The notes under the pieces: model-generated
What the model was told of the DNA's origin: nothing
Databases searched by the model: none
What the model saw: only the letters and a program-made list of their open reading frames with translations
Assembly: GCA_965645245.1 (NCBI GenBank)
Contig: OZ287086.1
Location: 1,116,001-1,180,000, forward strand
Reading direction: 5' to 3'
Length of the DNA: 64,000 nt
From: Massalongia carnosa
Lineage: Eukaryota
Made by a program: the position numbers and the translations under genes
Shown here: positions 1,470 to 26,968 of the stretch, in pieces
Layout: the number at the start of each line of letters is the position of its first letter
Numbering within the stretch: position 1 is the stretch's first letter

Positions 1470-1570
1470 GGAGGCAGGCCGCGAAACAGCCGACGAAGGC
1501 TGAAGGCCATGGATAGCCGAAGGACCGAGTGGAGGCAGGCCGCGAACAGCCAACGAAGGCCGAAGGACAA
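1470..1570. repeat. Imperfect ~60-bp direct repeat (ggaggcaggccgcgaa..cagcc.acgaaggc.gaagg x2), probably within a TE relic
   Basis: Two copies visible at ~1470-1507 and ~1531-1567. Confidence 0.6.
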
Positions 1571-3740: not shown

Positions 3741-4188
3741 CAATCAAAAAAGAAAACCCAAAAAAAGAGAATAAAATCATAAGGATGAACGCAGCCAAAA
3801 ACGAGATTGACGAATAAAAGGGGGAAAATTAGGATAAAAATGGGGAAGTAGGGCACGAAGGAGAGACTGGTCTACGAACAGAACAGAACAGACCAGAAAC
3901 CTACTTAAACTAAACTGAATGGACCGAGATTTGGTATACTTACCTAGCTAGATAGTTGGAAAATGGGAGCAGGACCACGATGATGATGCGCACGATAACT
4001 GTGTAAGGGGAAGGGGGGAAAGGGGGGATACGTAGAATACATGTAAACAACAAAGCGTCGCTGGGTGGGTCGTACTCTAAGCGTGCACATGAATGACTTT
4101 TTCCGCCCCGTGCCGCTCACAGTCCTAGCGATAGTACAATGTAGTATACAGGTGGGGAGAGAGAAGAAATCGTACATCAAGGATGGGC

Positions 4189-5898
4189 TCACGTCTCGTC
4201 CTCCAGCAGCGAAGTCTCCTCGCCGCGAACCTGGAGGGGCCCGCCACGGACGGCCTGCAGTCCGAACCGACCCAGCAACGCCGTCACCCCCGTGAACATG
4301 ATGAGGCGGCCAAACTTGGTGCCGTACGCGAATTTCAGCGTGCCCTGCGGCATGGCCGAGTCGACCAGCATCTCCCCCACCGGGCCGCTCAGGATGCAGC
4401 CGAAGCCTCGCCCCGCAGCCAAAATGCCCATGATCACCGCGACCTCGGCGTCGGGGGTTTTGTTCCGGATTTCCGTGGCGCAGCCGGTCCAGGTGGACGT
4501 GTACCCCCCGGCGAATATCCCGTATGTAATCGCGAACATGTACAGGACCGGTTCGACAACGGCGAACCCCCACAGCAGGAAAACCGACAGGGCCGAGCCG
4601 ATGGCCGAAATGAACAACACCGTCGACACGTGCAGCCGGTCGCACAGAAAGCCCATGAAAATCATGCCCACGGTCGCAGCCGTGTTCAGCAGAGAAATGC
4701 TCGCGGTGGCGGTCAACGGCGAGAAGCCGATCGATGTGGCATAGTCTGGAATCCAGTCAGCAGCGCTCGTCCTCGGTTTCGTGGGTCAAAGGCTCACCTG
4801 ACATGAAGATGTGTGGCATGAAGTATCCAAACCCTTCAATCACGTTGCCGATTTGAAAAAGCCAGAAGGCTCGTTGTCGAAGAAATCCAATGTTCAACAG
4901 TCCTGTTGTGCGTTTCGCTGGAGGAGGTCGTCGTGGGCCCATACAATACACCAACGTCGATAGTATCACCAACTGATTTGGTAAATCGTATGTTAGCGTG
5001 CAAGGTCTGGAGTTACGCAGCGCAGATGCCCTCACAGGAATGGAATGACCCTTACCGTGAGTACTGCCCAGACCCGCAAGGTTGTCCTAAAGCCATACGT
5101 GTGCAACGCCCAGTTCATGAGCATCGGCATCACCGTTCCACCGACGCCCGATCCCGCCCAGAACACGCCATACGCAAGCCCTTTCCGTTTGATAAACCAG
5201 TCATCCAACCAGAAGATGAATGGATTGTACACGAGGCATGCGCCTATCCCATACAACAACCCCTGGGTCAGTATGAGGTTGGACACACTGTCCGCAAACG
5301 ATGCAGCAACCAGAGAAGTGGTGAGGCAGACCACACCAAGGACGGCGCTAGTTTTCTGGAACCTAGGCCATCGTTGTAGCACCAACACCGCGATCGGCGC
5401 TAAAAAGTATGCAATCCCCTGCGACGCATTTAGCACCTCTTCACATCGTTGACCGGCAATCGTCTCACCAGCGTGGTGGTTCCCACCGCAGCCACTCCCG
5501 GCTGCGACGAGAACGGCTCGAGACGAGAATAGTAATTCTCGAAGACGCCGTAGGAGAAGGGGAGTGCTAGGTTCCGTCACTTCAGTTGCCGTTGCAGAAC
5601 ACCGATCGGGGCATGATCCCTTACCCCAGATAAACGCTTCGAGGCAGAAGCAACCTCCTAGAAAGAGCCAGGCGGCGGCTCCGTAGTCCGCGGGCGGAAT
5701 CCCAGCGTCTTCCTCCCAGACGGGTGCCGCCGTCTTTCCTGAACCCGACAGTGCTGTTCCATAGCTTTTGGGTCTTTCTGCACCCGGTCGGGGGTGGGGG
5801 TCATTGGTTGGACAAGACACGTTGTCACGACGCTGAGTCTTGCCGTCTGGTTTTTCCACACGAGGCATTGGTACGCGCGGGTGCGTGTGCGTGTGCAT
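4189..5898 (-). CDS. MFS transporter, monocarboxylate-porter (MCT/Mch)-like, about 4 introns
   Basis: Exon ORFs: PPADYGAAAWLFLGGCF, LILTQGLLYGIGACLVYNP...DDWFIKRKGLAYGVFWAGSGVGG, FWLFQIGNVIEGFGYFMP, MGFLCDRLHV...GCILSGPVG; GT-AG introns; stop TGA at 4189. Start could instead be ATG at 5868. Confidence 0.88.
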
Positions 5899-6804
5899 CT
5901 CGATGATTGACGTTGAGAGAGGAACGACGAGAAGGGTGTGGGATGGGAGGGGAACTCCGAGGGAGAATTGCCAATATAATCAAGCGGACAGATACGGTGT
6001 GGAAAGATCTAGATGCTCTGGATTCTTCACGACGTCATGGAGGGGGAATAAGCCAATCTGGAACATTTCACGCTCTGTCATCGTGAAAAGTCAAACGCAC
6101 TCCCCGAACCAATCAGACGCCGGCCGGTGGATTCCGGACTGGTTTCGGTAAGTGAGATCATAGTAACTACTTCGTACATCGTACACAGTACACGGAGGAG
6201 GAACTGCATCGAGCGGAGTCACTAACCCAGTCCAAACCCAGTCCAATTACCGAGTACCACCAAAGCCCGTATTAGAGTATTACGTAAGATGGCCACTGAG
6301 TTGCCTCAACCACCTGGGCTGGGTGGCTGGGTACTCCTATCGTTTTATGATCAATCTTTAAGTAGAACAGGGGTTCGAGTCCCTGTTAGCGCGGGCCCAA
6401 TCCTTAGTGGGGTTGATGGTTTTGGGTTCTGCCACTGGCCACATGTGGTGTCCCCTTGTCGAGAGCTGAATGCGGTCTGGCCGAGGGGCTCACATGCCAA
6501 TCAGCAGCGAGAGCATGGCTTGCTGGATAATCAGAACTTTACAATGTAACAGTCGATCATGAGCCGACACATCGATGGCCGGATTGCGGGTGGCGGCTTT
6601 TCAGCTGCTGCTGCCAGATCTCAGACCGTGCGTAAAAGCCGCGTCGGACTAGCCTTACTCAAGCCGAACTACGCAGGTTTACGTCCGGTGATGACAATCA
6701 TGCGACTCGGGTGGTTATGACTACGAGTGATAACTACAAACAGTGCCCGAATCCTAACGGTGCGCGTGCCCAACGTGAAGCGTCGTGGCGAATGAATCCA
6801 TGAA

Positions 6805-9004
6805 TCACGCGTCTGATTCCGAACCTGCCGAGTCTCGCACTTTGGTGCAGATCCAGGTGGATTGGTACGTGGGATCGCTGTCAGAAATTAGTCAACCGTT
6901 GATGCTCGCCATGTGTGGCCAGGATGGAGGCCATACCGATCATCCTGATGCGGCGAATGGACTGGATGCGACTGAAAGCCCGACGCATTGAAGGCGGCGA
7001 TATAAGAGGGCGTGAGCATGGTGGAATGAAGCAGTGCCCGACCCTCAATCCGAAGAGCACGGTTCATGGCGAAAATCCGTCGGCTCGTCTCAATGGAGTC
7101 GGATGTGATCACGTCCATCGTGTGCATAACCTATGCGATGATCAACCGGACAATGACAGCGATAAAGTGACAGTGCGGTACGTACGACAACAACAGTCAA
7201 GCTTCCTGGCGCGATGCGACCGAGAACTACGCTCAAGTCCTCGGTGTGAATGATCAATCCCTCAAAGGTATGGGGCGATGATAGTCGATCAAAAGTGTCA
7301 GAATCTCGTAATGCTGTATGGAGACTAGACGATGATACTTATTAACCATGGAGCAGCGGCTGGAGGGAGCAGACTCCAGCTACCTTGCAATGGGTGTTTG
7401 ACGTTTCACGTCATGGATCCCTGCCTGGTGCAACCAAAACTGTAAAGCACGGCTCGACAGGTACGGGCTGACTCTCGAGATCAGAGTCCGGCAGAATGAC
7501 GCAGGATCGGTATTGCCAAACAATGACAAGAGTCCGGGGTGATCGAGACAAGCGTAGGACGCGACGTGGAGTTCCAAGACATGGTTTGAGATGGGATTGT
7601 CGTCAACAGCGTGGATCTGTAGAGGCCGCTCCTTGGCGTACTCTAAAATGTTATCGCCACCACTGGTCAGCGCCAAAACCACGTCGTCCGTATGGATCTT
7701 TAGTATCGCTTTATCCTTCCAAGAGTCTTCGCAGGTGAAGGGCCATCGGCACTGTACTAGACGAGCCGACTTTTCCAATTTTTCATCGTACGGGAGTCTC
7801 CACTTTTTATTTTGGTAATAATAGCAGGGCAACGGCAAGTTTGTTCCGAGGTTCAATACAGCAGCGTCGTAAGCGGTGGACCGGATTTTCATGACGTGGA
7901 GTGCTTTGTGCTGTTGGACGTGGTCCTCGATATCAACCGACACGGAAGAAGTGGCCGTGGCGTTGAGTCGTTGGATTTCTTCTTCAAGGAACTCTCTAGA
8001 GTCTGTTACGGGTGAGTGCAATGTCTTGAGACTACCAATCCAGATGTAGTACGGGATAAAGCGGTAATGATAATCCCAGCGGTTGACATTGAGGATAGAA
8101 CCGAACTTGTATTCTAAATAATCCCTTCTCGAGGAGTCGAGGTTAATCCGATCGATATCAAACCATGCTCTCCAAAACATCCTACTCCACGAGCCAACGT
8201 GTCGTTTCGAGAAGCCTGCCGTGTAATTTCGGCTGGCTATGTCGCATTGATTCTGGACATAAAAGTCTACTACACCGACGACACCAGACGGAGAAAGTAT
8301 AGTGGTACATAAATCAATCGCAGGACAAAAGTCTGGGATGGCCGACAATGAATAGGAGAAAGTAATCAGGTCGGCGTGAAAAGTATCCTTAGCCAAAAGG
8401 GAATTGGCGCGACCCCTGCTGCTAGTATCACTGTTATCTTCGGCTTCTTCAAAGTCCTCGAGACGAAGACGGGATGCATCTTTACAGATGATCCGGATAT
8501 TCGTCCAACCCAGACGATTAAAGCGTTCCCGGGCCACCTCCAAGAGCGATGGTGTCAGATCCACCAAGTAGACTCTCTCGAAAAAGTCCGGAACAGGAAG
8601 GAATTCGGACATGGCCTCCACATTATAGCCCGTGCCACCACCAATCTGGTCATCAGTTCGGTCAGCTTATCCACAGCAATAAGGTATTTGCTTACGTCTA
8701 TCCAGATTGGCTTTCGGCTTCCGCTCTGTGGCTGATCCATTCTGTACGACAACTGAGCTGCCACCAGCCCAAGCAAAGCTTCACGACCAGGCAGAAAGTA
8801 CGACCGAATGGCATCATACTCGCTCGCCTGCTCTTTGTATTTGTTCTCCAAGAAAGCCTGCGGGTTCGAACCATCTCCGTCTTCGGCCCGAGGCTTCAAG
8901 AAAGTCCCATAGACAAATTTCCACGCAGACAACACCGACGAAGCATTGTTGATCGTGAAATAAATCAAAGGCACTGACAGTGCGGTTGTTACAAGTGTCC
9001 ACAT
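6805..9004 (-). CDS. BTA1: Betaine lipid synthase (BTA1)-like protein: N-terminal SAM N-methyltransferase (BtaB-like) plus shortened, divergent BtaA/DUF3419-like domain; about 4 introns
   Basis: N-terminal TM helix; Y..QASEYDAIR; WID/IGGGTGYNVEAM; TFSYSLSAIPD; GVVDFYVQ; RRDYLEYKFG; ALTSGGDNIL. Further exons give FEGLIIHTED..GSLTVVV, MNRALRIEGRALL and STWICTK ending in TGA at 6805. Confidence 0.82.
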
Positions 9005-10211
9005 TGGGTAGGCTTCGATGAAATGCGTCGGAACGGAGAAATCATAGGGAGGGTGAAACTGTGCAACGATCTTTGGTCAATATAAAACTCCAGTCTTCAA
9101 GGAGCTACTGAACACCAGTGGCAAACGGATTCTCATGAGATGCATACTGCCTCAGTTACGTCCTCGCTCCGCATGTGTTAGATCCACATGAGTCGATTGA
9201 GGAAACGGGCGTATAGAGGACGGCCAGCTTTCCAGTAGTTGTGCCCACTGGGGCCATGCAGGTAGCACGGCAACGCAAGCCTCTACTGCTCTAGATACAA
9301 ACTCCGTAGGGGATTCCGCGTTCATCTTGCCCACGCTCTTGAACCAAACTTCCTAGGCGAGAAATATCCTTTGGCGATACTTACAAAGTAGTAATCTAGG
9401 ATGTTTGCTCTTCTCGATGTCAACCTGGCCGCCGTGCATCTCAACCGCATTAGCATTATTCGCGCGCATGCAAGTATGCCTTTAGTTGCGGTACCTGCTC
9501 CGTACGCTGTGTTCTGAACCGAACTATCTATTGAAATAACTTTCCAATGTATCGTGTTTCATTACGCTGTATGATTAATGTCCTTGTTATCGGGAGTACT
9601 CCGTACATGTAGAACCGCAACGTTAATCCATAAACAGAACCGTGGCGTCCCCTAAAGCGGCGTGGGCGATAAGATAGGCGTTCCGGAAGCGAGTAGTCTA
9701 CGTCCGTCCAGGATTTCTTCATCGCCGAGCACTCAAGCGGTTCGCTCATGCATGCATCATGCAAAGATGCAAAGATGCTCGAAATATATTCTGCTGCCGT
9801 ACTCTGTACACGAATGTGGTGGCTTGCGTTGGTGGTGAAATAGATGCATCTAGGTTTTGGAGTCCTGCAATACGCTCTAACGTACCTCCGTACTTGTTGA
9901 TCGGTTCATCAACACCCCAGCTCAATGCCAACGCGTATCCTGCAAGCCTTCACTATCAGGACGGGCTGGCCTTCACAAGCAAGCGGCATTAAAGTGGGGT
10001 CCTTGTTAAGCACTAAAGCAAGCCATTCTGGGGGACGTGCCTAGAATCCCATGTGTCAAGAAAAGCTGTTAGGTGCTGATGGCCTTCGCTGCACTCCGAG
10101 GCCGATTCTGGGACGACGAGTGTGTCTTCCTCGATCCACGCCACCCAAGAAACTCGTCAAATATTGAAAAACTCGCTCGCGATGAGGTATCAGGCGTGAC
10201 ACCAACTTAAC

Positions 10212-12288
10212 ATGGGTTCTCAAGCAGTATCGTACACTGATCTTTTGATCGTGGGTGCTGGGCCGGCTGGCATGATGGCTGCGGCATGGGCTAGTCAGTA
10301 TCAGATGTCAACGCGAATCATAGACAAGAACTCAGCACGAACGAGCAAAGGACAGGCGGACGGGTTGCAGTCCAGAACATTGGAGATATTTGACAGCTTC
10401 GGAGTTGTAGATTATGTCTGGAAGAAAGGATTTCATGACATAGAAATGGGGATTTGGGTATGTAAGCCAGCGCTTCTACCACCGTGTTGACTCTGATGTG
10501 ACATAGGAGGCTGATAAGAATGGGTGTGCACAAAGACTTCAACGAGTGCTCTGTCAAAAGGTTGGTCTCAGCAGGTACACACAAATCAGCATTCATCAAG
10601 GTGCGATTGAACAAAGTCTTCTGGATGTGATTCGCCCAAAATTCTCGGTAGAGAGAAACGTGACTCCGGAGGAGCTGGAACTAGATCATTCAATTGTAGA
10701 CGAAAACGATGCCTACCCAATTACGATCACCCTTCGCCATAATAGGAGAACTCCGAATGCGAACGAACGCAGTGACACCCAGAAGACCACGGATAACTCC
10801 CATGGTGATTCTCCCAGCGGTACTGATAACGCTGGCGAGAGACAACGCGTGGAAAGGGAAGGACTTGAGATTGTCAAAGCCAAGTACCTGGTTGGCTGTG
10901 ACGGTGCACATAGTTGGACGCGGAAACAGCTTGGTATATCTCTAGAGGGCAAGCAGTCCGATTCGATTTGGGGCGTCATGGACATTGTCCCCATCACGGA
11001 TTTTCGTAAGGATTTGCTCTCTTCGAGAAATTCATTTGGCTGACCATCCCCAGCCGACATCCGTCAATCCTGTGCCATTCATTCCGCAAAATACGGCAGC
11101 ATCCTAAACATCCCCCGCGAGAACCGCCTCAACCGCCTCTACATCCAACTGAACCGCGACAGCCAGGACCCTGTCTTCGACCGAACCCAAGTCACCCCGG
11201 AAACCATGCTGCACGTAGCGCAAAACATCCTGAAACCCTACACCCTTGAATTCCGGCACTGCGACTGGTGGTCCATCTATCAGATCGGCCAACGTATCGC
11301 CCCCAATTTCAGCGTCGCCTCCCGCATTTTCCTTGCCGGCGACGCGGTGCACACGCATTCCCCGAAGCTGGGCCAGGGCATGAACGTATCCATGCAAGAC
11401 AGCTACAACCTGGGCTGGAAGCTCGGCAGCGTCATCACAGGGCGCTCCCCGCGCGCGTTGTTGGCAAGCTATGAGGACGAACGGCGCCGGGTCGCGCTTC
11501 AACTCCTGGCGGTGGACGAGGAGATTGCTCGTTTCTACGCTCGTGCGAAATCAGAGGCAGCGGACTCGACAAACGGGGATGAAACCGACTTCGGCGCGAT
11601 CCGGGAGAGGATGTATGAGTTTTTGGCGGGCATTGGCGTTACTTACGGGCCAAGCGTTTTGGTTGCCGAGTCCCAGGGAGCGCTGGCGACGAAGATCACG
11701 CTCGGCGCGCGCTTCCCGTCCCATCAGGTTCTGAACCAGGCGGAAGCACGGCCGATTCAGCTGGGCGACATGCTGCCGAGTGACGCGCGATGGCGTGTGA
11801 TTGTTTTCGCGGGCGACATCACCGATCCCGTGCAAGCCCGACGGATGCAGCAGCTCGGCGACGCGCTCGCGGCACCGGACTCCTTTCTCCGCCGCTTCAC
11901 GCCTCCGGGGCAACGGATTGATTCCGTCATCGAGATTCTCACCCTCCACAACGCTCGGCGGACCGCCGTGAGCTTGGCCGATTTCCACCCCATCTTCCGG
12001 CCGTTTGACGAGGAGCTGGGATGGGATTACTGGAAGGTGTTTGTGAGCGACGTCCCCCATCACGGGGTGTTTGTGGATGCGTACGAGAAGTATGGCGTTG
12101 GCAAGGACGGCTGTATGCTGGTTTGCCGGCCCGATCAGCATGTGGGCCACGTGGGCGCGTTGGAGGACGTGGCCGCCGTGGCGAGCTATTTCGCGGGGGT
12201 TTTGATCCCCTGCGTTGGATCGTCATCGGGAAAGATGGGGGGTGTAGATGTTGGGGGGGCTCCCGGGCATATGGGGGATGGATGTTAG
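10212..12288 (+). CDS. FAD-dependent aromatic hydroxylase (phenol 2-monooxygenase family), 2 introns
   Basis: GAGPAG Rossmann motif, GQADGLQSRTLEIF, VGCDGAHSW, FLAGDAVHTHSPKLGQGMNVSMQD, C-terminal thioredoxin-like domain ending RPDQHV. Confidence 0.92.
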
Positions 12289-12548
12289 ATGCTGTACAAA
12301 CCAAAAACCTTCATTCCTACGAGATAATTACATGGGCGAGCGCATTTTTGAGATATCCGCATCCCAGCGGTCGAGGATGGTTCTTGGAATTCCTGATCTA
12401 CCATGACATCCGCGTCGCACGGGATGATGATCCCGTGGCGCACACATGATGGCCCACCGATCCTCGCTCATGCTCACACGCGGTGGGTGGCAGCATGCCG
12501 GATGCAATGTCGGCCGCGCCTGCGCTCTCCTCTCGTCCGCCGCCACCA

Positions 12549-13340
12549 TCACTTGACCACCGCCAGCAAAAACCCATCGTAATTCTTCTCGCTGACCGTC
12601 TGCAACAGCACCGCGTCCACGCCCTCCATCCGCCCAATGCCCTCCACCGCCCTCCGGATCCCCTGGACGTTGCGATCGCTGACCGCCAGCTCCTCGTCCG
12701 CCAACAAGCCCTTGCGCACCATGTTGTCCAGATAGATGCACGCGCCGGGGCGCGACATCTTCACCGCCCACTCGAAATAATCCAACGCCTCGGCCTTGTC
12801 GGCATCGATGAAGGCGAAATCGAACCGGTCCCGCTCCCCGCGCTCGACCTCGGCCGCGAGCCGCGGGAGCACCTCCAACGCCGAGCCGACGACGACGTCG
12901 ACGCGGTCCTGCATGCCCGCGAACGCGAGGTTTTCCCGCGCGACGGCGGCGACGTGCTCGTCGATCTCGATGCTGGTGATCCGGGCGTGGGGGCGGCCGC
13001 TGGCCATCCAGATGGTCGAGTAGGCGCCCAGCGTGCCGACCTCGAGGATCCGCTCGGCGCCCACGAGCTGGCACTGCACGGCCAGGAACTTGCCCTGGGA
13101 CGGGGCCACGGAGATGTCTTCCAGCCCCTTGGCGAGCGAGTTCCGGAGCGCGTGCTCGATGGCAGCGTGGTACGGCTTGGAGGCCGGGTGGAGGCGCGGG
13201 ACCGCGTACTCGTCGACGGCCGTCCAGCGGGGGGTGGTTTCCGTGACGTAGGCGTTCGGGTCGACGCCCCAGTGGGGGAGTTGGGTGGTTGGAGCGGCAG
13301 CGGTGGCGTGATGCTGGGAGTTTGCGTGATCGGTCGCCAT
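12549..13340 (-). CDS. SAM-dependent O-methyltransferase family 3 (catechol/CCoAOMT-like), intronless
   Basis: ISVAPSQGKFL, ILEVGTLGAYSTIW, FDFAFIDADK, YLDNMVR, KNYDGF. Confidence 0.92.
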   Translation of the reverse strand: MATDHANSQHHATAAAPTTQLPHWGVDPNAYVTETTPRWTAVDEYAVPRLHPASKPYHAAIEHALRNSLAKGLEDISVAPSQGKFLAVQCQLVGAERILEVGTLGAYSTIWMASGRPHARITSIEIDEHVAAVARENLAFAGMQDRVDVVVGSALEVLPRLAAEVERGERDRFDFAFIDADKAEALDYFEWAVKMSRPGACIYLDNMVRKGLLADEELAVSDRNVQGIRRAVEGIGRMEGVDAVLLQTVSEKNYDGFLLAVVK

Positions 13341-14244
13341 TGTTTTTTTTTATGTTGTCCCTTCCTCGACGTCTTTTTTTTGTGAATTAGTGAGGAGTCG
13401 AGAGGTGGGAGGGGGTTGTTTGAAGAGAAAGGTGCAGTTTTGATGTCTGCTTTGGGATCGATCCTTTGCCGGGCACCCCTCTGCCCTTTTTTTTGGTTAT
13501 TGTCTTTGTTTTTGTTTTCGTTCGTGAAGATCACGAATCGACGTCACAATTCCGAACCACCGTAATTACTCCGTATCGTATCAAGTCCGTATTGACTCCG
13601 TATCGACTCCGTATCGAAAGAAACGCGTTTCATGTGTCGACGATCAGACCGAGGCCGAGAACGGAGGTAATCGTGCGTCTTTTCCGAGTCTTGTACGACA
13701 GACCCGCAGCCGAGAAGCGGGGCGAGTGAGGGGGAGGTGGGGAAAAGACACCTTTTTGTCTCCACATGTTTGTATTCTCTCTACTCCGTATGTAACTCGG
13801 TACTCGATACGGAGAATGCCATATCGACAAACGGCTATCTACACTGGGTACAGAGTCACGAACGATGCATGTTCGATGCATGCGTGCGGGAGTGATGGTA
13901 GATTACAGAGTACGCTGTGCAGAACCAGTCTGTCTATCTTTAGTTGCGGCATGCTCGGCATCACCATGTCGATACTCGATAGTCGGTCGTGACTCCGTCG
14001 TGAAACTGCGTTCGACATGAGTACAGATACGGAGTACAGATACTCGGTGTCTGTCTGTCCACGGCACAGAGCGTGCTTTGGTTACATATGCACGGCGTCA
14101 CTAGCACCAAGACGCTCATCCGGAACGAGCTTACTCCGTACACGTTCCGATTAACTAATCGTGTTGGTGCGTGATTCTTCGCTTGCTCGTTTGGGCCGTG
14201 GCGCTTTCGGCCTCTGGACTCGACCGAGGACGGAAACTGGGTGG

Positions 14245-14345
14245 ATACATACACACATACATACATACATACATACATACATACATACATACTTACTTAC
14301 TTACATACATACGTACATGCATACATACTTACATACATACATACG
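14245..14345. repeat. (TACA)n/(TACT)n microsatellite in the OMT-aconitase divergent promoter
   Basis: Directly visible. Confidence 0.9.
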
Positions 14346-14912
14346 TACAGCGCTGTACCGAGCACTCTGTACTTTGAGGGATGTACGGTATTGACGGTAA
14401 CCGAACATAGGGTACAGAATACAGGGCGTGTGTTACCGAGCATGTCTGCATGCCTGCGTGTCTGTATCATGAGAGCGAACCGAGGCGACGCATGTACCCC
14501 TCTCCCCCACTTCCGAAATCAAAACACTGCATCGTCCGTCGTCGAGGAGACGCACGTAGTTCTTCCGCAGGGCACCGCTTCCATAACTATGCATCGTGAG
14601 TCAAGCGGGGAATGGGTGGCGGAATGCGCACTACAGGCCAGCGTCATCCTCGCCTCTTCGTCATTCTCGTCCATGTGGACACCGGAATGACGCTAACGCG
14701 GGTGGGAAATGGCGAGCTAAATAGATACCCTGGCGCTCCGATGTCCTCCACTGCGTCCAGTCCAGCGAGAAACGGGACTGGTGGATCTCAGACGCCATCG
14801 TCGAGAGCAATGGCGGGCAGAATGTCTCGGCTCGTTTCGTGATATACAAAGACGAACATCAAATCCGCTAGAACTCGTATGATGCGAAAGGAATCCTCGA
14901 TCCCCCCGCGAG

Positions 14913-17900
14913 ATGTCGTCGTCGATGCAATACGGCTTCGAACCTGGCGTTTCGGACAATGTCCAGACCTTCCTGCGCCACATCTTCCATCTGCTGGGAA
15001 CCGTGCGCCACATCGCGTGTCAAGAGAAATCCACGCACGATGTGTCCCCGGACAATGACAGTGAGAGTGCTCCGCCACACCTCGTCGGACGACGGCTCCG
15101 CTCAACTGACGGGTTAGACGCGCAGAATCCTCCCAGGGTCGAGTTCGCCGTGTCCGCGAGTCTGCAGGAGTGTGTCGGTCGCATCGGCGATGCCTTGCGG
15201 GATCGTTCTCGGGAACGGGAGGCGGAGACGTTGCAACACGTCCTCGAACTGAGCGGATCCGACGTGGAGCTGGGAGGGCTGGGAATTGGCCCGGCCCTTC
15301 GGTCCACTCCCTGGCCGTTGAGCGCCAGGAACCTGGACGATGTGGCCTTCCTGGTCGAGGCGTGGCTGGAAGCGCTCAACTCCGCCGACAACGCGCGACC
15401 GTTGCCGGCACCGGTGACGGCGAGAGACCCCGCGCGGCGACCGATGACGCTCTCCGAGAAGATCTTCGCCCATCATGCGACCCGCATCCCCTCGCCGGCG
15501 GGGATCAAGCCGGGAGATTTCATCCGGGTGTTGGTGGACTGGGTGATTGCGAGCGAGTTGTCGTGGGTGGTCAGTGCACCGCTGCATGCGTCCGTTCGCG
15601 ATGGGAATTAACCGGCGATGAGGAGCGGATTAGGGGATGAAACACAGCCTGGAAAGCATCGGCCGACCGCCGACGGTCTGGCGAAACGATCGCTTTTGGC
15701 TCGCGGGCGACCACGTGGTCGATCCACGAACGTACGAGCAGCCTCGAGTGCGCAAGCTGATGGACGGAATGGCAGAGGCCAAGAAGCGCTTCCGGATGAC
15801 GGAGAATCAAGGCTCCAACGTGCGCTGCCCTCCCTGCTCTCGTGGTGTGCTTGGGTTGACGTGCAGCCTGATGACGACAACAGTTTACCATCTTGCACAC
15901 GGAGTTTGTTCGCGAACGCGCCGAACCGGGCATGCTGGTCGTGGGGTCGGATTCGCACACGTGCTCCGCCGGCGCGGTCAGTTGCCTGGCGATTGGGCTC
16001 GGAGCCGCCGACGTGATGATGGCGCTGGCCACCGGGGAGACCTGGTTCAAGGTTCCGGAAAGCATCCACGTGCGGCTCGTGAATCGGCCGGCGTGGTACA
16101 TCAAAGGCAAAGATACCATCCTCTACATCCTGAAGGAGCTGAAGCGCAACACCGTGGCGGCGGACCGCATCGTCGAGTTCGGCGGACCGGGCGCTCGACA
16201 CTTGTCGTGCGATGCCCGGTTCGCCATCACCAACATGTGCACGGTGAGTGCGCCTGCGTCCCGTGCCCTGATGAAGTCGCATCGCGCTGATGACCGCCCC
16301 GGGGGGGGGGAGGGGGGGTTTTGCAGGAACTCGGAGGCATCACGGGAATCTTTGCACCGGACGAAGTCACGCACGCGTACATCCACGCGCGCGCGCGCAA
16401 AGCCCATAAGGCATCGTCCCGGTATTTCCAGGCCGACCCCGGAGCGCAATACGCCGAGACGTTTGAGATCGATCTGGCTCAAGTCGAGTCCTTTATCGCG
16501 CTGTATCCATCGCCGGATAATGTCGTCCCGATCACGGACAAGATCGGCATGCCGTTCGACGGCTGTTTCATCGGAGCGTGCACCACCACCGAGGAAGAGC
16601 TCATTCTGGCCGCGCTCGTGTTGCAGGTCGGCCTCGAGGAGAACCTCCCGCTCGTGCCAGGCAAGAGACAGGTCGTCCCGGGCTCGCTTCCCATTGTGCG
16701 CAAACTCACGAAGCTTGGCCTCCTGGAGGTTTACGAACGCGGGGGCTTCGCTCGTGCGGCTCCCGGCTGCAGCCTATGCCTGGGCATGGGCGCCGATCGT
16801 GCCGAGCCTGGCGAAACATGGCTGTCGTCGCAAAATCGAAACTTCAAAAATCGCATGGGGCACGGTAAGCTGCACGCGCGCACGCTCGCAGGAAATGGCT
16901 CCTAACGTGGATTGCGTCCCGTAGGGTCGTTTGGGAACATCTGTTCCGCCGCGACCGTGGCCGCGTCGTCCTTCAGCATGACCCTGACGGATCCCCGACC
17001 GTTCTTGGCCAAAGTGAAGCCGAGCGATTACACCGCTCTCCTGGAAACACGTCAGGCGTCTCCAAAGATGCGTCCCGCAGGGAACCCTCCCGACAGCGGC
17101 TCCCGCTTGACCTTCGTGGAGCCATACCTTGCTTGCGAGGACCCGGAACCACATCACACGACCAGCAAGGTTTCCCAAAACGGCCTCGCCGTCAATCCGA
17201 CGACTCCGACGATTCAAGGCAAGGCTTACGTGCTCGGGGATTTCGTCGACACTGACGCGGTAAGCCTCGCTCCGTCGTTCACGCTGATTGAACCCTCCCA
17301 TGCGCGTCGTGATTTAATCGGACGTTTCGTAGATCATCCCCGCCTCGTTCATTCTGGCCAGCCCCACGGACGAACAGCTCGGGAGCCATTGTCTCGAGTA
17401 CACGAACCCCGATTTCCGCGAAAAGGTCCGTGCCGGTCATGACATTGTCGTGGCCGGCAAGGCGTTCGGATGCGGATCGTCTCGCGAGGAAGCTCCCCGG
17501 GCACTCAAAGGCAAGTCTCGCGTCTCGTCCCCTCCCGATCGACGGCGGGACCCGAACGCATGTCCCTACCCATGCGGCTTTGCCCGTCCACGCTGACCAC
17601 ATGCTCCTCGGGGGGCCACCGCAGGCTTGGGCGTCAAATGCGTCATCGCGCGCTCGTTCTCCTTCATCTACGGCCGGAACCAACCGTCGATCGGGCTCCT
17701 CGGCATCACCATCGCCGACGACGACTTCTACGCCCGCGTCGCCACGGGCGTCGACATTGCCGTCGACGTGTCCCGCCGCGCCGTCGTCGTCGCCGGCCGC
17801 CACCGGTATCCCGTCGCCTTCGACGACATGGAACTGCGCCTGATGGAGAGCCGGGGGCTGGCCGGAGCGTTTTTGAAGTACGGCCGTCGGGTGTTTCAGA

Positions 17901-17989
17901 ACCTGTGCGCCGAGAGCCCGGCGACGCGGACGGATGAGGCGGAGGAGAAGGAGGAATGGGACAGCGCGAAAGCGCAGCTGGCGTGGTGA
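14913..17989 (+). CDS. Aconitase-family isomerase (fused LeuC/LeuD-type isopropylmalate dehydratase; htyD/AMT8-like), 6 introns, last one GC-AG
   Basis: [35 protein letters not shown] and PGCSLCLG (three Fe-S Cys), [12 protein letters not shown]; swivel domain [28 protein letters not shown]. Confidence 0.92.
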
Positions 17990-18428
17990 AAAGTTATTGT
18001 TATTGTTGTTATTGTTGTTGTTGTTGTTGCTGCGATGATTTTGTGAAAGGAGAATTTGAAAAGAAATAATTCAATCAATCAATCAATCGATCTATCAATC
18101 AGACTTAAGCGAAATCGTGTTGAATCAATCGAGAAAAATAAAAAACAACAATCAGTCATTCACTTGAAGATCCAAAAAAGATATATCTCTCTTCTCGTTT
18201 TTCTTCAGATAAACTAAACTCGACCTTTTCTGATGTGTGATTTCAAGTAAAAAGATCCTTTTTTTTCCTTTTTCCCGCGCGCATACACACACACGCCCAC
18301 ACACACACACGATTATACTAACAATCCACCAATTCCGCGCGATGACAAACAAAACAAAACAAATCGAAAGAATCCGGAAAAGCTGTCATGTTTTTTTTTT
18401 TTCTCAAGTTACATTAAACAGGCATTAT

Positions 18429-18608
18429 TCATTCCCCTTCTCTGCTCTTCTCTTTGCTTCTCCCAATCTCCCCCTCCGGCTCCCGCACAACCTCCACCCA
18501 CCCGTCCGGCCCCCCGGCCCCCCTCCCCGTCTGAATCCCCCTCAACCGCCCCACCAGCCTCCCGTAACAGCTCCGGGGGCCCAACCACCGCGCCTCGCCC
18601 CCCTTCAC

Positions 18609-18640
<32 letters not shown>

Positions 18641-19903
18641 TCCCCCCGTACCGGAACGTGCGCCCCGCCGCGCCGTGCTCGATCGATCGCACCGGCACCA
18701 GCACTGCCGCCGTCCCCGCCGCGAACACCTGGTCGAACGATCCTAGCTCGGCCGCGCCGATGCGCCGCTTCTCCACCGTCCAGCCGAAGCTGCGCGCGAT
18801 CTCGCACACGCTGTCGCACGTGATGCTCGCGACGATCTGGTCGTCCGAGACGACGAGCGTGTACTTTTCCTCCTCCCTCCTCCTCCTCCTCCTTCTGCTT
18901 CTGGAGGTGGGCTTCGCCGGCACGGTCGGGCTCAGCGGTCGCCCCGTCCAGCTTGACCCCGATGAAGGCGCTCGTCGAGAACTCGTCAATGGCCGTGTGC
19001 GTCGCGCTGTCCAGGTGTAGCGTTAAACCGTAGCCCTTGGCCCGCGCCTGATCCAAGATCCCGAGCATGGGGCCATAGTTCCCGCCCAGCTTGGCGCTGC
19101 CCGTGCCGAGCGGCGCGCAGCGGTCGAAGTCGTCCACCACCAGCGCGTCGACGGCGTGGGCCGCGTGGCTCCCGTGCAGCGGCCCGACGGGCAGCGCGTA
19201 GATGCAAAACGTGTAGTCGGCCGCGATCCGGAGCCCCGGCGAGGCCGACGTCGCGAAGCAGAGCGCCCGCAGGTACAGCGACGCCGCCGTGTGGTGCGGC
19301 GGCACGAACTCCGAGTTGAGCCCCACGCATAGGTGCAGGCAGCGGAGGAAGTGCTCGTGGGGCACCGCGGGGATGGTGACGAAGCGGGAGGAGTGGGCCA
19401 GTCGGAGCGCGTTGAGGAGGGGGCGGAAGAGGAGGATGGTGTTGTTCGGGGAGCGGTGAGCTATGTGGGTGGGTGGGCGAGCGTTAGGGGGATTTTAGGG
19501 GGAGGAATGGGAAATGATGAGGAGGGGGAGGGGGTTACCTTTTAGTCCCTCGAAAGCTTGCTGGCCATAGTTGAGACAGGGGGCAAGACCGTGGATGCGG
19601 AGGACGGGGTCTTTAACGAAGACTGGCGCGCTCCAGTGACCGGTTGAGGTCGAATAATACGATTCGATGTGCCCGTTGACTTCGAGGGCGTCGAAGCCTA
19701 GGTTATCCCAATCTGTGTGGTTTCACGAAGTCGTTCTTAGTCATCATCGGTTGTGTATGTATATAAGAACAGGAGAAATCGAGAAAGAAGAAAGAAAAAA
19801 AGAAAAAAGAAAAAAAGAAAATAGAAAAAGAAAGAATGAAGGAAAGTATTTGTAAAAAAACATAGATACCTATTGTTTCGAGTGGAGGGCGTGGAAATGT
19901 CAT
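18429..19903 (-). CDS. Branched-chain amino acid aminotransferase (class IV PLP; htyB/AMT5-like), 2 introns, apparent 1-bp frameshift at ~18877
   Basis: MTFPRPP.., DWDNLGF, LNYGQQAFEGLK, LYLR, GSAKLGGNY (PLP lysine), IDEFSTS, SITCDSV, FAAGTAA. Confidence 0.88.
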
Positions 19904-21246
19904 TGTGAACCTCTATCGTCCTAGAGTTCTTATTCGTCATCAAGTTAGAACGCGAGAAAGAACGATATCATTGGAAACAGAGTCGGAAATGCAAAGCAAA
20001 GTATCAGCTTCGACACTTTTATTCCATGTGAATATTCCACATGATTTAGGGTTAGGGTTTGCGGTAGACAGTAAGAATTAGTGAGGGTTAAGCTGATAAT
20101 CGATGCATAACCGGAATGTTGATACAACGTATGCAATGCAACGCACAAGTCGACATGTATGTAATATATGTAATACATGTAACACATGTATTGCATGTAT
20201 TTTTACCGACCGCGTATGCAATAAATACATGTCATGTCTCCTTCATGCGGACTCGGTCGAACTCAGCTGCGTTCACATCGCCTTAAGCTTGACCCCGCAG
20301 TGGTACGCTTTGACAACCGATTCACAGCTCTTTCCTCCGTGAATTTTGACCACGCACGCCTTGAGTGATTTTTGAAAACGAGGCTGGCTGAGAAGTATGG
20401 TTAAGCGTATGATGGCGGATTTGGTCTCCGCTGCTGGCAGGAGGTGGTTGGATTCTTTGGGTTTTAGCGGCTGTGCCTAACCTTCAAGCGCAAACTTTCG
20501 ATAATCTCCCCTCTCCGAGAACCCGCAGAATGCAGCTAGAGTTGTGGGCGGGCAGAAGATGAAGGAATCGACGAACCGACTGCGTTTTGGATCAACGGAT
20601 TGCCGATTTTCGACTGGAGGTCTCCGCTTCAGGAAAAAGATAGATCGGACCTCTGTATCTTGTTGTTAGTCCCGTGAGTGGCGCTCCCATCTCAGATCAA
20701 ACCATTAATATGCACATCTTCCGTAATTTCTGCATCGTATGAGGCCAGTCGAATATTCCCATCCGCCGAGCGGAGGCTTTGAAATGACTGTGTAAAACGA
20801 ATTCATGTTATCGGACGATCTTTCTGTGCATCGATATATGCGCAGCGGTCCGAAAGCTTAACGATCGTATCGTAAACCGAGCCGACAACATCTTTTGTTA
20901 GATAGTCTTAAATGTGGAGCTGATATGAGGTGGGCGTGCAGCTTCGTCCATGAAGGCCCCCTGGGTTCCATCGTAGCAACTCGCGGAATAGCCAATGGAG
21001 ATGTTATCAAACACTCCGTCAATAGACTAACAAATCAAGCGTGGATTGAGATGGGAGCCATGGTCGTCCTGCAGAAAGCCATATAATTAAACAAGTGGTA
21101 CCGAGGCCAACTCTGCCTCTAGCAGTTCTAGGAGCAACAGAGCTAGATTAATCGACACCGAGGTCGGAATACCTACTTAGGATCTAGATCGAGTGCTCTC
21201 AACAGCATTTCACCGGGTTTCGGAGCAGCGACCTTGCACGGTGAAG

Positions 21247-23178
21247 ATGCCAATGTAGGTGCTTGATTGTCCGACGGTGGAGTGCTTGACGGATCGGGAT
21301 GCCTTGGTTTTTCGAGAGTATGATGTCCTAACTAACGGTTCTTTTTCATTACCTAGTCAAGATCTATCCACAAAATATGGACGAGTTGCTCCACCGTTGG
21401 ACCTGCCGAACCGTCAATGGCCATCCAAGACCCTAACCAAAGCGCCGATATGGCAATCGACGGACTTGAGAGATGGCAATCAAGCTCTCAAAGTGCCAAT
21501 GGTACGTAAGATCCCCCCCGACACCATGGGAATATATCCGTGTAGGGGCTAACTCGAACATAACCTATAGACGTTGAACCAGAAATTACAATACTTCGAG
21601 TTGCTGACCGGCCTCGGCTACAAATTCATCGAGGTAGCTTTTCCTTGCTCCTCAAATCTAGAATATGATTTTGTGAGGCGTCTGGTGGAGACTCCGGGTG
21701 CGGTGCCGGACGATGTCACTTTGCAGGCCATCTCCCCGTGCCGAAAGGATGCATTGCAAAGAACAGTGAATAGTTTGCGAGGGGCTAGGAGGGCGATTGT
21801 TTTCACCTACATTTCCACAAGCGAAAATTATCGGGAGACCATATTTGGAATGTCGGAAGATGAATGCGTACAGCAAGTAACCGATTGCATAGCCTTTGTG
21901 AAGTCCATCACAGTAGATGATCCTACCTCCAACAACACAGAATGGCGATTTGGCTTCGGATGCGAGGACTTCAGCAACGCACGTCCAGGTTTCATTGTTC
22001 GTCTTGGCGAGGCGGTCAAAACGGCCTGGGGACCCACCGTAGAGAAGCCTTTAATCTTCGGCTTGGCGGCCAGCGTTGAAGGAACCACTCCCAACGTCTT
22101 TGCTGACCAAGTCGAATACTTCCTAACCCACATAACCGAACGCAGAAAGATCTCGCTTTCAATCCACCCCCACAACGACAGAGGCTGCGCTGTGGCTGCT
22201 GCGGAACTGGGCTGCCTGGCTGGCGCAGATATGGTCGAGGGCTGTTTGTTCGGAAACGGCGAAAGGGCAGGCAATGTCGATTTAGTCACTCTAGCGTTGA
22301 ACTTTTTAAGACTCGGCATCAATCCGGGGATCGATTTCTCCAACTTAGCAAAGGTTCGGGCTATCGTGGAAGATATCACCAAGATTCCTGTGCATCCGCG
22401 CGCGCCTTACGTGGGAGACTATTATTTCCTAGCCTTGAGTGGAACACACCAAGACGCGATTAGAAAGGGCTTTTCGCGTCGTGACGACGGAGGCCGGGCG
22501 ATGAGTGACGGGACCATGAATGGCACCGATAAGACCAAAGCGTGGTGCGTGCCGTACTTGCCGATGGATCCGGCCGACGTCGGTATTGAGCAGGCCAACA
22601 TCATTGGAATCAGTAGTCAAAGTGGTAAAAGTGGCATACTTTGGATGCTCCAACACACGTTGGGACTCCATCCTCCAAAAGAACTCGCGATGCTTTTCTC
22701 CCAAGCAATCAAAAACACATCCATGGAACAAAAACAACAGTTAGCAGCGAAAGAGATTTGTAGCCTGTTTCTCGACACTTATCATGAGCGACGGTTCAAC
22801 GACGGCGTCGCTCAACTGTCTCGCGAAGGAAGCCCCAACATTGTCTCCATCGACATAGGATCCCTCGAAAAGCATATTCCCAAAGAAACAGAAGATTCGG
22901 TCGTCATGCACTCGGCGGTAGCGAAGTTGTCTCATGCCCTCGATGTGGATCTCTCATGCGTTGAGTATTCATCGCATATCGTGGAGAAAAGGGCGCAGAC
23001 GAGTGCGTTTGTTAAATGCTCAGTGGATGGAAAGGGCAGTGGGTCGTGGGGAGTTGGAATCGGTTCCGGCCTGGCTATGGCCTATCTCTCCGCTATCGTT
23101 TCCTCCGTTACTGTAGGTTTCGTCCTTTCTTTGCCTTTTTCCGTTACTTTATCTTGACAGGAGATTCTGACTGTATGA
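21247..23178 (+). CDS. 2-isopropylmalate synthase-like enzyme (yeast Leu4 type; htyA/AMT7-like), 3 introns
   Basis: MPIQDLSTKY after splicing 21255-21356; [47 protein letters not shown]; last exon EILTV*. Confidence 0.92.
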
Positions 23179-23419
23179 AAGACTAGCAAGGCATTCAGTG
23201 TAATAAAAGCATCTTAATACGGAGCATGAAACACACGGCATTCTTCTAAGACAATGTGATAGTGAGTTAACGCGAGTGTATGTAGAAGCGAAGGATATAA
23301 GTGACTCGTAAGATACCAAAAGAGCGTCATAGTCAACTTTTCCCAAACAAAGGCAATCAAGTTCTGATTTTTTCCATTGAGTCTATTCCCTTAAATGAAC
23401 GTGAAATACCTCTAATTCA

Positions 23420-24936
23420 TTAAGATTTGCCGGATTCCTCCAACAACGATGCCACGACAGCGTCACCAAATTCCTTGGTCTTGGCCGATCCACCGAGATC
23501 TGGTGTATGAACGCCAGCCTCAATCACCTTGCTGACCGCGGATTCTATTGATGCTGCCTCGTCGGGCATGCTCAATGAGTATTTCAGCATCATCGCCACG
23601 GACAGAATCATGCCGACTGGATTCGCGATACCTTTCCCTGCTATATCTGGAGCCGAACCTGCAATGAGAAGACCGTCATCAAAAGAAACCCTAGAGGGGA
23701 ATTCGTAGAATCCGAGAGAGCTCACCGTGTATCGGTTCATACAATCCGCGGACACGGTCTTTGAGATTGGTGGATGGGATCCCGCACAAGCTGGCACTCG
23801 GGAGCAAGCCCAAACTACCTGGAATCACACTTGCTTCGTCCGAGATGATGTCTCCAAACATGTTGCTGGTCAAAATTACGCCGTTCAAGCTCCGCGGGTT
23901 TCGAACCATGACCATCGCCGCGCTGTCAATTAACATGTGTTTGAGCTCAACCGAAGGAAACTCGCGCGCCATGGTTTCGCTGACAACACCTCGCCATAAC
24001 CGCCCTGCAGCGGCCAGCAGATTGGCTTTGTCCAAACTTGTCACACGCAACGGTGGATTGTGCGCCATAGCTAGGGTGCCGGCAAGCCGTGTAATTCGTT
24101 CGATTTCGCCACGAGTGTAGGATTCCAGATCCGAGGCGGAGTCAAGCGTAGCGTTAGGTTCGCAGCGTGTCCCATAATAGATGCCTCCGTTCAGCTCACG
24201 GACAATAATCATCGAGGCACCGCGGCACACCTCGGCTTTCAGCGGCGAGAGATCGACCAGAGACGGGGCAGCAAAGAAGATGGGTCGGAGGTTCCCATAG
24301 GTTTGCAATTCCTTGCGCAAAACGCCGAGGCCGCTCTCCGGCGGAACGGGTCCTGTGCCCCATTTCTGTAGCCGTATATGATTGAGCATAAGAGTCCGCA
24401 CCTGTGAACGAGCACACCCGGAAAATGTACAGAGACAATAGATTGGAGACAGGACAGGAGCAGGAAACGTACAGGCCCGCCAACTGCACCGAACAACACG
24501 GCATCGGCATTTTTTGCCGCCGTTAACGCCTCTTCCGTTAGAGGAATGCCGTATTTATCAATTGATGCCTGATTTCGTGACGAGGACAAATGTCCTGTAT
24601 GTCAACTGGGATCATAATTACTTGTTGGGGATTGGGCCACACAAAGAGGAAGCTTACGCCGCCCACAAGATAATGACTCAGCTCAAGTCGAATGTCCGTC
24701 CGCCGCTGTTGAATGACACCCAAGACCTATCTTGGCGTAATTAGTTTCAAGCATTTCGACGGAACGTCCAGTTGAAGGAATGAGGTCGCACCTTAAGAGC
24801 TTCCGTCATTACCTACATGTACATAGCGTCATCCCTCTTGTTAGTCTAGACATAAAGATTCATCGGAGTATCCTGCTTGTACCTCGGGTCCGCAATAATC
24901 GCCTGCCATGACAACAACTCGATAAGTCACTGACAT
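23420..24936 (-). CDS. 3-isopropylmalate dehydrogenase-like enzyme (htyC/AMT6-like), several introns
   Basis: [83 protein letters not shown]. Confidence 0.92.
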
Positions 24937-26634: not shown

Positions 26635-26968
26635 TGTCGGACCGTTCTTATTGATCTGGAAAATGATGTTCTCCTTGTCTATCTAAACTGGAAATTCTAG
26701 CTAGCTATATAGACCATTTCGCCACATTCTTTCATAATCTAGATATCTTCCAGCCACTTCTATTTACTAATAGATCATTAGTGATCCGGAACCCATGCGA
26801 GGTACAATGCTTTGAAATCATTGAGTATTAGAAATCAGATATATGGCATAGAAAGAAATAGCATCTGAAAGATCGAGGCCTCGGTTATTAGTCCGAAATC
26901 ACGTGCTTTTCCTTCAACAGGATCTTACTTCGGGAATTGGCTTGAACCACGGTCTATTAATATCGACA
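26635..26968. mobile_element. Solo LTR (334 bp, TG...CA), family copy 1
   Basis: tgtcggacc...atatcgaca; near-identical copy at 58038-58371. Confidence 0.85.

Follow-up and report, generated by a model that had tools for sequence, protein, structure and literature searches.

The eight-gene island

The 64,000-nt stretch of Massalongia carnosa DNA considered here (assembly GCA_965645245.1, contig OZ287086.1, positions 1,116,001 to 1,180,000 of the forward strand; hereafter the window) carries an island of eight neighbouring genes between its positions 4189 and 24936. Four of these genes encode enzymes resembling those of leucine biosynthesis, namely a condensing enzyme of the 2-isopropylmalate synthase (IPMS) type, a fused aconitase/isopropylmalate-isomerase-like protein, an isopropylmalate dehydrogenase (IPMDH)-like enzyme and a branched-chain-type aminotransferase. 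They are accompanied by a flavoprotein hydroxylase, an O-methyltransferase (OMT), a transporter and a paralogue of the fungal betaine lipid synthase BTA1 (Table 1). A preliminary description, made from the DNA letters and a list of open reading frames (ORFs), had claimed eight adjoining genes over this interval. A Pfam scan of stop-to-stop ORFs recovers all eight families, the spliced models place eight genes at the coordinates then given, and the claimed ends are exact, with the transporter stop codon at 4189 and the dehydrogenase ATG at 24936. The evidence set out below gives good support to the view that the island is a homologation cluster of the homotyrosine type with new tailoring genes.

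Gene models were built by listing GT/GC-AG introns that join homologous frames, and at two 5' ends the DNA itself was read. Seven of the eight genes are open from ATG to stop in these models, the aminotransferase gene being the exception. All introns are of the GT-AG type apart from the last intron of the aconitase-like gene, a 114-nt intron with a GC donor (GCAAGT), which is the sole splice that restores the conserved join. The gene order is also found in a second lichen sample: in a 'lichen metagenome' run from a separate study, 67% of the words sampled from the window are present, and contigs of this run are collinear with positions 4700-24699 at roughly 98-99% identity. A single contig of 8,224 nt from the same run covers the BTA1-like, hydroxylase and OMT genes. 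The 2.1-kb gap between the OMT and aconitase-like genes contains an (ATAC)26 microsatellite at 14245-14349, where short-read contigs end.

Table 1. Genes of the island, followed by features of the right flank (positions in the window; introns in the direction of transcription; CDS, coding sequence).
Feature	Position	Strand	Introns	Product and domain matches
SLC16/MCT-type MFS transporter	4189..5868	-	5624-5567, 5468-5419, 5055-4973, 4797-4746 (GT-AG splice models, open CDS)	478 aa; MFS_1 7.5e-11; ATG at 5868, alternatively 5898
BTA1-like paralogue	6805..9004	-	8695-8646, 7383-7325, 7185-7131, 6936-6878 (open CDS)	658 aa; Methyltransf_11/25 and DUF3419 (1.5e-33)
Phenol-2-monooxygenase-type flavoprotein hydroxylase	10212..12288	+	10458-10506, 11006-11053 (open CDS)	659 aa; FAD_binding_3 and Phe_hydrox_dim
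Family-3 catechol/CCoAOMT-type OMT	12549..13340	-	none (one exon)	263 aa; Methyltransf_3 4.1e-28
Aconitase/isopropylmalate-isomerase-like protein, large and small domains fused	15444..17989	+	15570-15633, 15820-15883, 16244-16326, 16865-16924, 17260-17332, 17511-17624 (six)	695 aa; Aconitase and Aconitase_C 6.7e-32
Class IV branched-chain-type aminotransferase	18429..19903	-	19869-19713, 19538-19461 (splice models)	two parts, 264 aa and 147 aa; Aminotran_4 5.3e-08
Hty-type 2-isopropylmalate-synthase-like condensing enzyme	21247..23157	+	21255-21356, 21502-21570 (open CDS)	579 aa; HMGL-like and IPMS_D2 3.5e-54
Isopropylmalate-dehydrogenase-like enzyme	23420..24936	-	24882-24813, 24791-24727, 24657-24569, 24472-24366, 23725-23659 (five; open CDS)	372 aa; Iso_dh 1.6e-64
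Long interspersed nuclear element (LINE)	29121-34471	-		open 1272-aa endonuclease-reverse transcriptase-RNase H frame
Two convergent pogo/Tc5 transposase frames	35258-38861			592 and 622 aa, overlapping by 44 nt
Patatin/NB-ARC/TPR gene of the NOD-like receptor (NLR) type	39078-43332	+		
Gypsy-type long terminal repeat (LTR) retrotransposon	49942-55829			233-bp LTRs 100% identical; gag 410 and pol 1085 codons open
Second Gypsy element	58037-64000			extends past the window end

The homologation quartet, its tailoring enzymes and their linkage

The isomerase, dehydrogenase and aminotransferase paralogues are clustered with the condensing enzyme, all within 9.5 kb. The same four enzyme types are clustered in the echinocandin and pneumocandin producers Aspergillus pachycristatus (HtyA-D) and Glarea lozoyensis (GloH). 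The route to homotyrosine, as outlined in PMC7778625, uses the keto acid of tyrosine and acetyl-CoA, followed by an isomerase, a dehydrogenase and a transaminase. The preliminary description had taken the quartet for a specialised cassette of this kind, and this holds up on both the phylogeny and the pocket residues of the condensing enzyme. The same two lines of evidence disfavour the alternative that the quartet is a housekeeping leucine pathway.

Among the 120 matches listed for the condensing-enzyme exon, none of the 36 best carries PF08502 (LeuA_dimer) in the precomputed Pfam column. These include GloH (50% identity), HtyA (49%) and enzymes from Venustampulla and Coleophoma, and the housekeeping synthases rank below the GloH/HtyA group with 45-47% identity. 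A tree was made from 52 of the 120 listed matches, that is, the 36 best and 16 chosen ones, 14 of the latter being housekeeping enzymes. In this tree, the 14 housekeeping rows stand apart from 38 specialised ones with full support in the Shimodaira-Hasegawa-like approximate likelihood ratio test (SH-aLRT 100). The window synthase falls within a 13-row clade (SH-aLRT 98) that is sister (92) to a 22-row clade containing HtyA and GloH. For the window synthase itself, the match to LeuA_dimer, the leucine-feedback domain, stays below threshold at 18.1 bits (cut-off 24.9); the region aligns weakly to the C-terminus of LeuA and looks like a decayed remnant.

The pocket was read by aligning the exon to Mycobacterium tuberculosis LeuA (1SR9) and comparing six columns, H167, E214, S216, N250, P252 and T254, in all 52 rows. 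These six positions, S216 and P252 among them, are taken to line the side-chain pocket, and their replacement would enlarge it. The window synthase reads F, G, G, G, A and S here, exactly as HtyA and GloH do; the LeuA residues H, E, S, N, P and T stand in every one of the 14 housekeeping rows. The six substitutions are found in 35, 35, 38, 37, 37 and 38 of the 38 specialised rows, respectively. Leu, Glu, Ser and Asn are among the side-chain contacts of IPMS that are described in PMC12961565. A further column, LeuA position 217 (at about 21950 in the window), holds Cys in all 7 rows of the clade in which the window synthase itself lies; the clade of HtyA and GloH has Phe or Met there, and every one of the 14 housekeeping rows has Pro. 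Going by the alignment, this column is a possible specificity marker. The six-position signature provides a simple sequence test for homologation cassettes, and position 217 separates the two clades.

Paralogues of leucine-pathway enzymes have likewise been recruited for other 2-oxo acids in cyanobacteria, where HphA-CD are linked to homophenylalanine and homotyrosine, and in plants, where methylthioalkylmalate synthase (MAM) serves in chain elongation. For HphA and MAM, the available accounts describe a lost or decayed leucine-binding regulatory domain and an enlarged pocket (PMC12961565, PMC8468904), and the change from IPMS to MAM involved loss of the regulatory domain (PMC8468904). These are, however, separate recruitments in other kingdoms, and the likeness to the window enzyme is drawn from their descriptions.

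The tailoring genes distinguish the island from the Hty clusters, in that no nonribosomal peptide synthetase (NRPS), 2-oxoglutarate-dependent oxygenase or cytochrome P450 is found nearby; instead, a phenol hydroxylase of the flavin type is present together with an OMT of the catechol type, and the host is probably a lichen-forming ascomycete. The hydroxylase combines FAD_binding_3 (7.8e-31) with a C-terminal Phe_hydrox_dim domain (3.1e-65). Its closest solved structure is the Trichosporon phenol hydroxylase 1PN0 (1.2e-82, chain residues 261-648), followed by 3-hydroxybenzoate hydroxylase, in agreement with its earlier assignment as a phenol-hydroxylase-type enzyme. The closest named relatives are from lichen-forming fungi (Trapelia, 60% identity; Circinaria, 58%; Gyalolechia and Squamulea, 56%), and these, together with the contigs of the lichen metagenome run, make a lichen mycobiont the probable host. 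A metagenome scan with the hydroxylase relative P0248 returned 13 loci, only one of which is close (L012, 2.3 kb, 77%). L012 matches the 5' part of the hydroxylase gene collinearly and shows no clear coding frame in its 1 kb upstream. The OMT scores 98.5 bits against PF01596 (cut-off 22), and its solved relatives are 3DUL (8e-50) and then CCoAOMT, norbelladine OMT and COMT, which makes it a family-3 enzyme of the catechol/CCoAOMT type, as had been proposed. For the transporter, a single exon of 121 aa was searched, and 12 of its 13 solved matches are MCT10, MCT8, MCT1 or MCT2, with MCT10 the best (3.3e-11) and MCT8, MCT1 and MCT2 following in this order; the assignment to the SLC16/MCT type is thus borne out. 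MCT10 and MCT8 are known from animals as carriers of aromatic amino acids and thyroid hormones. At the level of protein families, hydroxylase, OMT and transporter would all fit a phenolic amino acid as substrate.

Linkage of these genes in other assemblies was looked up for the best 120 matches, using the longest contig per 90% cluster; two matches were assigned to the same contig when their contigs agreed in nucleotide size and source. By this measure, the hydroxylase relative P0252 (60% identity) and the synthase relative P0130 (54%) share a single ENA contig (25,347 nt), and the hydroxylase relative P0333 (55%) and the synthase relative P0132 (55%) share another, 102,588 nt long. P0130 and P0132 both belong to the 7-row clade of the window synthase. 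The pattern suggests that hydroxylase and synthase are linked in a conserved manner. No BTA1-like relative is found among the matches listed on either contig, and two contigs of 18.6 and 51.6 kb that carry relatives of the BTA1-like gene show no close hydroxylase or synthase among the matches listed. This absence among the matches listed speaks against the BTA1 paralogue being a conserved member of the cluster. The co-occurrence in other fungi by which the earlier proposal was to be checked is seen for hydroxylase and synthase in two other assemblies, but among the matches listed it does not extend to the BTA1-like gene.

The BTA1-like paralogue

Fungal BTA1 consists of a BtaB-like and a BtaA-like part and makes a lipid of the betaine class, diacylglyceryl-N,N,N-trimethylhomoserine (DGTS). 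The window protein has the same two-domain order and is 42-49% identical to canonical BTA1, but it lacks about 156 residues. Its exon 2 encodes the methyltransferase domain, in which the motif IGGGTG is restored by splicing, together with positions 10-119 of the DUF3419 profile, which represents the BtaA domain (385 positions in all). Exons 3 and 4 match profile positions 261-301 and 301-360, and positions 120-260 are missing from the protein in the Pfam scan. When canonical BTA1 (P0020) is compared with the window by tblastn, only its residues 1-409, 566-607, 595-667 and 687-700 are found. Since the intron at the junction is just 59 nt long, the roughly 156 residues corresponding to canonical positions 410-565 are truly absent.

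The deletion is shared by a subfamily of relatives. In the closest relatives, P0002-P0017 with the exception of P0013 (53-57% identity), the exon stops at an identical point; in P0010 the frame continues directly into the downstream segment that the window also has, and P0002, P0004 and P0010 share the gap. A tree was built with 16 rows of the subfamily and 33 canonical ones chosen from 103. In it, the subfamily forms a single clade (SH-aLRT 100), whose stem measures 1.17 substitutions per site and which is nested among the BTA1 proteins of Pezizomycotina. Measured on columns that are near-invariant in 30 canonical rows, the methyltransferase domain is the best-kept part, with 871 of 1037 cells retained in the subfamily (0.84), compared with 810 of 1136 (0.71) in the N-terminal part of BtaA; 46 of 65 and 41 of 71 such columns, respectively, are preserved by 90% or more of the subfamily rows. 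All 32 canonical near-invariant columns of the missing middle segment are lost. The first, S-adenosylmethionine (SAM)-binding strands of the BtaA domain are kept in the window protein and the subfamily (LTSGGDN and HAVDxNP), and the motif MDSMDWF, read in 14 canonical proteins, is MHTMDVI at the aligned place in the window. In the preliminary description, the protein had been called a BTA1-like N-methyltransferase; the BtaB-type methyltransferase domain is indeed there, but the gene encodes a whole two-domain paralogue with a large deletion in BtaA.

No solved relative of BTA1 was found by sequence, and a Protein Atlas search returned BTA1-type clusters only. In the AlphaFold model of P0020, whose mean predicted local distance difference test (pLDDT) score is 56.8, with means of 53-89 for 10-residue blocks over 410-565, the deletion lies within an all-helical insertion (345-567) between the strands 337-341 and 576-579. 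On this model, the Rossmann-like sheet of the BtaA domain could survive the deletion. A Foldseek search with the model gave no match at E <=0.001; its weak matches belong to the class I SAM methyltransferases, among them phosphoethanolamine N-methyltransferase and SgvM.

A pseudogene is ruled out by four clean canonical introns, an open frame of 658 codons and the fact that all 16 subfamily clusters keep their frames open. This last point indicates that the paralogue is functional and evolves fast, with an altered BtaA domain. It is tempting, though doubtful, to see in the deletion subfamily a lipid enzyme that has turned into a natural-product enzyme and quaternises a small aromatic molecule, by N-trimethylation alone or by transfer of an aminocarboxypropyl group and subsequent trimethylation; the helical part that has been lost may be the one needed for the diacylglycerol acceptor. 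If true, the island would be the first genetic route to the aromatic amino acid betaines of lichens, and one without an NRPS, polyketide synthase (PKS) or terpene synthase. Whatever its link to the cluster, this truncated subfamily represents a branch of betaine-lipid synthase that has received no study.

The proposed pathway, its alternatives and the flanking DNA

Based on the enzyme families, the Hty-like pocket and the linkage of hydroxylase and synthase, we infer a substrate, an order of steps and a product as follows. The aminotransferase, the Hty-type synthase, the isomerase, the dehydrogenase and again the aminotransferase would act in turn and lengthen an aromatic 2-oxo acid, most likely 4-hydroxyphenylpyruvate, by one methylene, the product of the quartet being a homotyrosine-type amino acid. 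The phenol-hydroxylase-type flavoprotein would then introduce an ortho hydroxyl into the ring, the catechol-type OMT would methylate the resulting catechol, and the MCT-type transporter would move the product or an intermediate. We give this core of homologation, ring hydroxylation, O-methylation and transport of a homotyrosine-type amino acid a probability of about 0.55. As a possible late tailoring step, the BTA1 paralogue may trimethylate the nitrogen of the amino acid, an idea that comes from the resemblance of its 2-amino-4-substituted-butanoate head to the homoserine head of the normal BtaB substrate. Aminocarboxypropyl transfer would be a less likely role of this protein.

Several observations weigh against the proposed core pathway. 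The window synthase is sister to the HtyA/GloH clade and lies outside it, so another bulky 2-oxo acid is a possible substrate; Cys in place of Phe or Met at position 217 likewise suggests that the substrate may be a differently substituted aryl-pyruvate. The aconitase-like protein, the dehydrogenase and the aminotransferase owe their putative roles to Pfam and PDB matches. Sharing of contigs by hydroxylase and synthase relatives is deduced from equal size and source rather than from contig sequence, and no OMT relative was found on the two linked contigs in what is a weak look-up (its library was clustered at 50%, and the best match among the OMT representatives is 56% identical). The island is also a compositional mosaic, with GC contents at third codon positions (GC3) that spread from 0.55 to 0.92: OMT 0.92, aminotransferase 0.84-0.90, aconitase-like gene 0.79, transporter 0.71, hydroxylase 0.65, dehydrogenase 0.58, BTA1-like gene 0.57 and synthase 0.55. 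These differences, most extreme in the intronless OMT gene, may have arisen by mosaic assembly, by gene transfer or by biased conversion acting locally. A common promoter word above the level of shuffles was not found in five upstream regions, where 15 7-mers occur in at least four of the five (9.1 in shuffles) and no word of 8 or 9 bases does. Finally, the aminotransferase frame shifts at about 18873-18876, where a (GAG)n run contains one extra G, and the break is not repaired by any intron that has a consensus donor or branch site.

The frame break may have a technical origin. Both halves of the aminotransferase align to the branched-chain aminotransferase structure 7LV7 (residues 90-254 and 275-338), which places the break in a loop with a Glu-rich insert. 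Compared with the window, short-read contigs of the same organism have an additional T after 18390 (X1, X3 and X5) and an additional GCT after 18842 (X1 and X3); they leave 18862-18910 unbridged, and X4 has no cover over 18707-19373. The two indels indicate that small differences between assemblies exist in this GC-rich, low-complexity stretch, and an assembly indel is as likely an explanation of the break as a real mutation.

There is close to an even chance that the BTA1 paralogue is a mere neighbour with an unrelated role and that the pathway comprises seven genes. The lack of co-occurrence with hydroxylase and synthase relatives among the matches listed fits this explanation, as do the presence of 16 subfamily sequence clusters, mostly on other contigs, and a GC3 well below that of the block formed by the OMT, aconitase-like and aminotransferase genes (0.57 compared with 0.79-0.92). 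However, the IPMS and IPMDH genes have a similarly low GC3 (0.55-0.58), the BTA1-like gene sits inside the island between transporter and hydroxylase, and its collinearity is kept in the second lichen sample. Moreover, fungal pathways typically have duplicates of primary-metabolism genes within their clusters.

A possible but less probable alternative is that the island is a precursor-supply sub-cluster, whose decorated amino acid feeds an NRPS or a ligase encoded outside the 64-kb window. To our knowledge, the only role described for homotyrosine cassettes is to supply lipopeptides of the echinocandin type. The preliminary description also named the AMT genes of Alternaria alternata, which provide the elongated aryl amino acids of AM-toxin, one of them O-methylated, and feed an NRPS. 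The characterised relatives of the window synthase (HtyA, GloH and the Venustampulla and Coleophoma enzymes) are all from echinocandin-type producers, in which homotyrosine enters the lipopeptide, as described in PMC7778625. Also, the window reaches just 4 kb to the left of the cluster on a contig of 1.63 Mb. In the ORFs scanned in the window, on the other hand, no adenylation, condensation or thiolation domain was found, in keeping with the absence of NRPS, PKS and terpene synthase stated in the preliminary description. No NRPS, PKS or terpene synthase domain was found by Pfam in 25 larger ORFs. Of the 29 ORFs in the 25-64 kb region that reach 130 aa, these comprise 22, together with three from the left flank; the seven right-side ORFs left out overlap others or are antisense. 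Likewise, 105 ORFs of at least 55 aa in the flanks and intergenic gaps gave no match above the Pfam cut-off, a Rhodanese_C match staying below threshold. The 39 kb on the right are taken up by transposons, an NLR gene and an ankyrin gene, and the dedicated MCT-type transporter at the cluster edge also argues against mere supply.

The full model of the preliminary description, a free, exported homotyrosine or homo-3,4-dihydroxyphenylalanine (homo-DOPA) betaine that is ring-hydroxylated, O-methylated and N-trimethylated, appears unlikely as a whole. It requires the methyltransferase domain of the BTA1 paralogue to be the N-trimethylase, with the truncated BtaA domain inactive or structural. In its favour, the BTA1-like gene is intact and lies 1.2 kb from the divergent hydroxylase gene, the methyltransferase domain is the better conserved part, and the 2-amino-4-alkoxybutanoate head handled by BtaB would be close in shape to a 2-amino-4-arylbutanoate. 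Lichens are, in addition, reported to accumulate sticticin, an aromatic amino acid betaine of the DOPA betaine methyl ester type, which is major in Sticta and Lobaria and is both catecholic and quaternary at nitrogen (PMC6332210). Sticticin differs from the proposed product, however, in its C3 side chain, which involves no homologation, and in carrying a methyl ester instead of a ring methoxy group. The model is opposed by the linkage data, with no BTA1-like relative listed on the contigs that hold hydroxylase and synthase, and no close hydroxylase or synthase among the matches listed on the two subfamily contigs. Our literature searches found no BTA1-family enzyme that acts on a free amino acid, and we know of no compound with the structure of a homotyrosine or homo-DOPA betaine.

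A real frameshift in the aminotransferase gene, and with it a decaying or non-functional cluster, is suggested by the extra G and the lack of a credible intron that restores the frame, but it is rather improbable: both halves still align to branched-chain aminotransferase structures with the break in a loop, the other seven genes are open, the indels relative to the short-read contigs lie only 30-490 bp away in the same low-complexity stretch, and a housekeeping aminotransferase could stand in.

Least likely of all is that the BTA1 paralogue has kept both activities on a new acceptor, transferring the 3-amino-3-carboxypropyl group of SAM to a small-molecule hydroxyl, for example the free phenol of the guaiacyl ring, and trimethylating it to an aryl O-homoserine-betaine ether. 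The retained LTSGGDN and HAVDxNP motifs and N-terminal columns, and a sheet core that would survive in the AlphaFold model at moderate confidence, are set against the loss of 32 near-invariant columns, the change of MDSMDWF to MHTMDVI, the poor overall quality of that model and an uncertain cluster linkage. The chemistry itself has precedent in nocardicin Nat and in the mollusc enzyme ACT of the bursatellin pathway, which are described as forming a SAM-derived homoserine ether on a tyrosine-type phenol (PMC11869996). Nat and ACT are not DUF3419 proteins; they come from an unrelated family that resembles methyltransferases, and they do not catalyse N-trimethylation.

In our literature searches we found no description of this gene set, no natural-product biosynthetic gene cluster with a betaine lipid synthase and no isopropylmalate-type biosynthetic gene cluster in lichen-forming fungi. 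What is new are the tailoring genes and the host group for a known homotyrosine cassette, together with an adjoining BTA1 offshoot that has not been described. The polar compounds of lichens have been poorly studied, and the combination of cassette, flavin hydroxylase, OMT and aromatic-amino-acid-type transporter in a lichen fungus points to an undescribed polar metabolite.

The DNA on the two sides of the island differs. Transposable elements had been claimed on both sides; this is shown for the right side, which is transposon-rich, and for that side only. The left flank (1-4100) is AT-rich non-coding DNA of 44-45% GC with two short microsatellites, and neither a transposable-element domain nor an in-window repeat was found in it. 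In the right flank, a LINE, two pogo/Tc5 elements, two Gypsy elements, one Tc1 fragment and a solo LTR-like copy are present along with the patatin-NB-ARC-TPR NLR gene and an ankyrin gene. The 335-bp terminal segment of the second Gypsy element recurs alone beside the cluster at 26634-26968 (99.4% identity) in the manner of a solo LTR. The LINE and pogo/Tc5 elements look recent and do not have the degraded appearance left by repeat-induced point mutation. In the NLR gene, the TPR part is a tandem array with a register of 126 bp, the copies of which are 92-97% identical.

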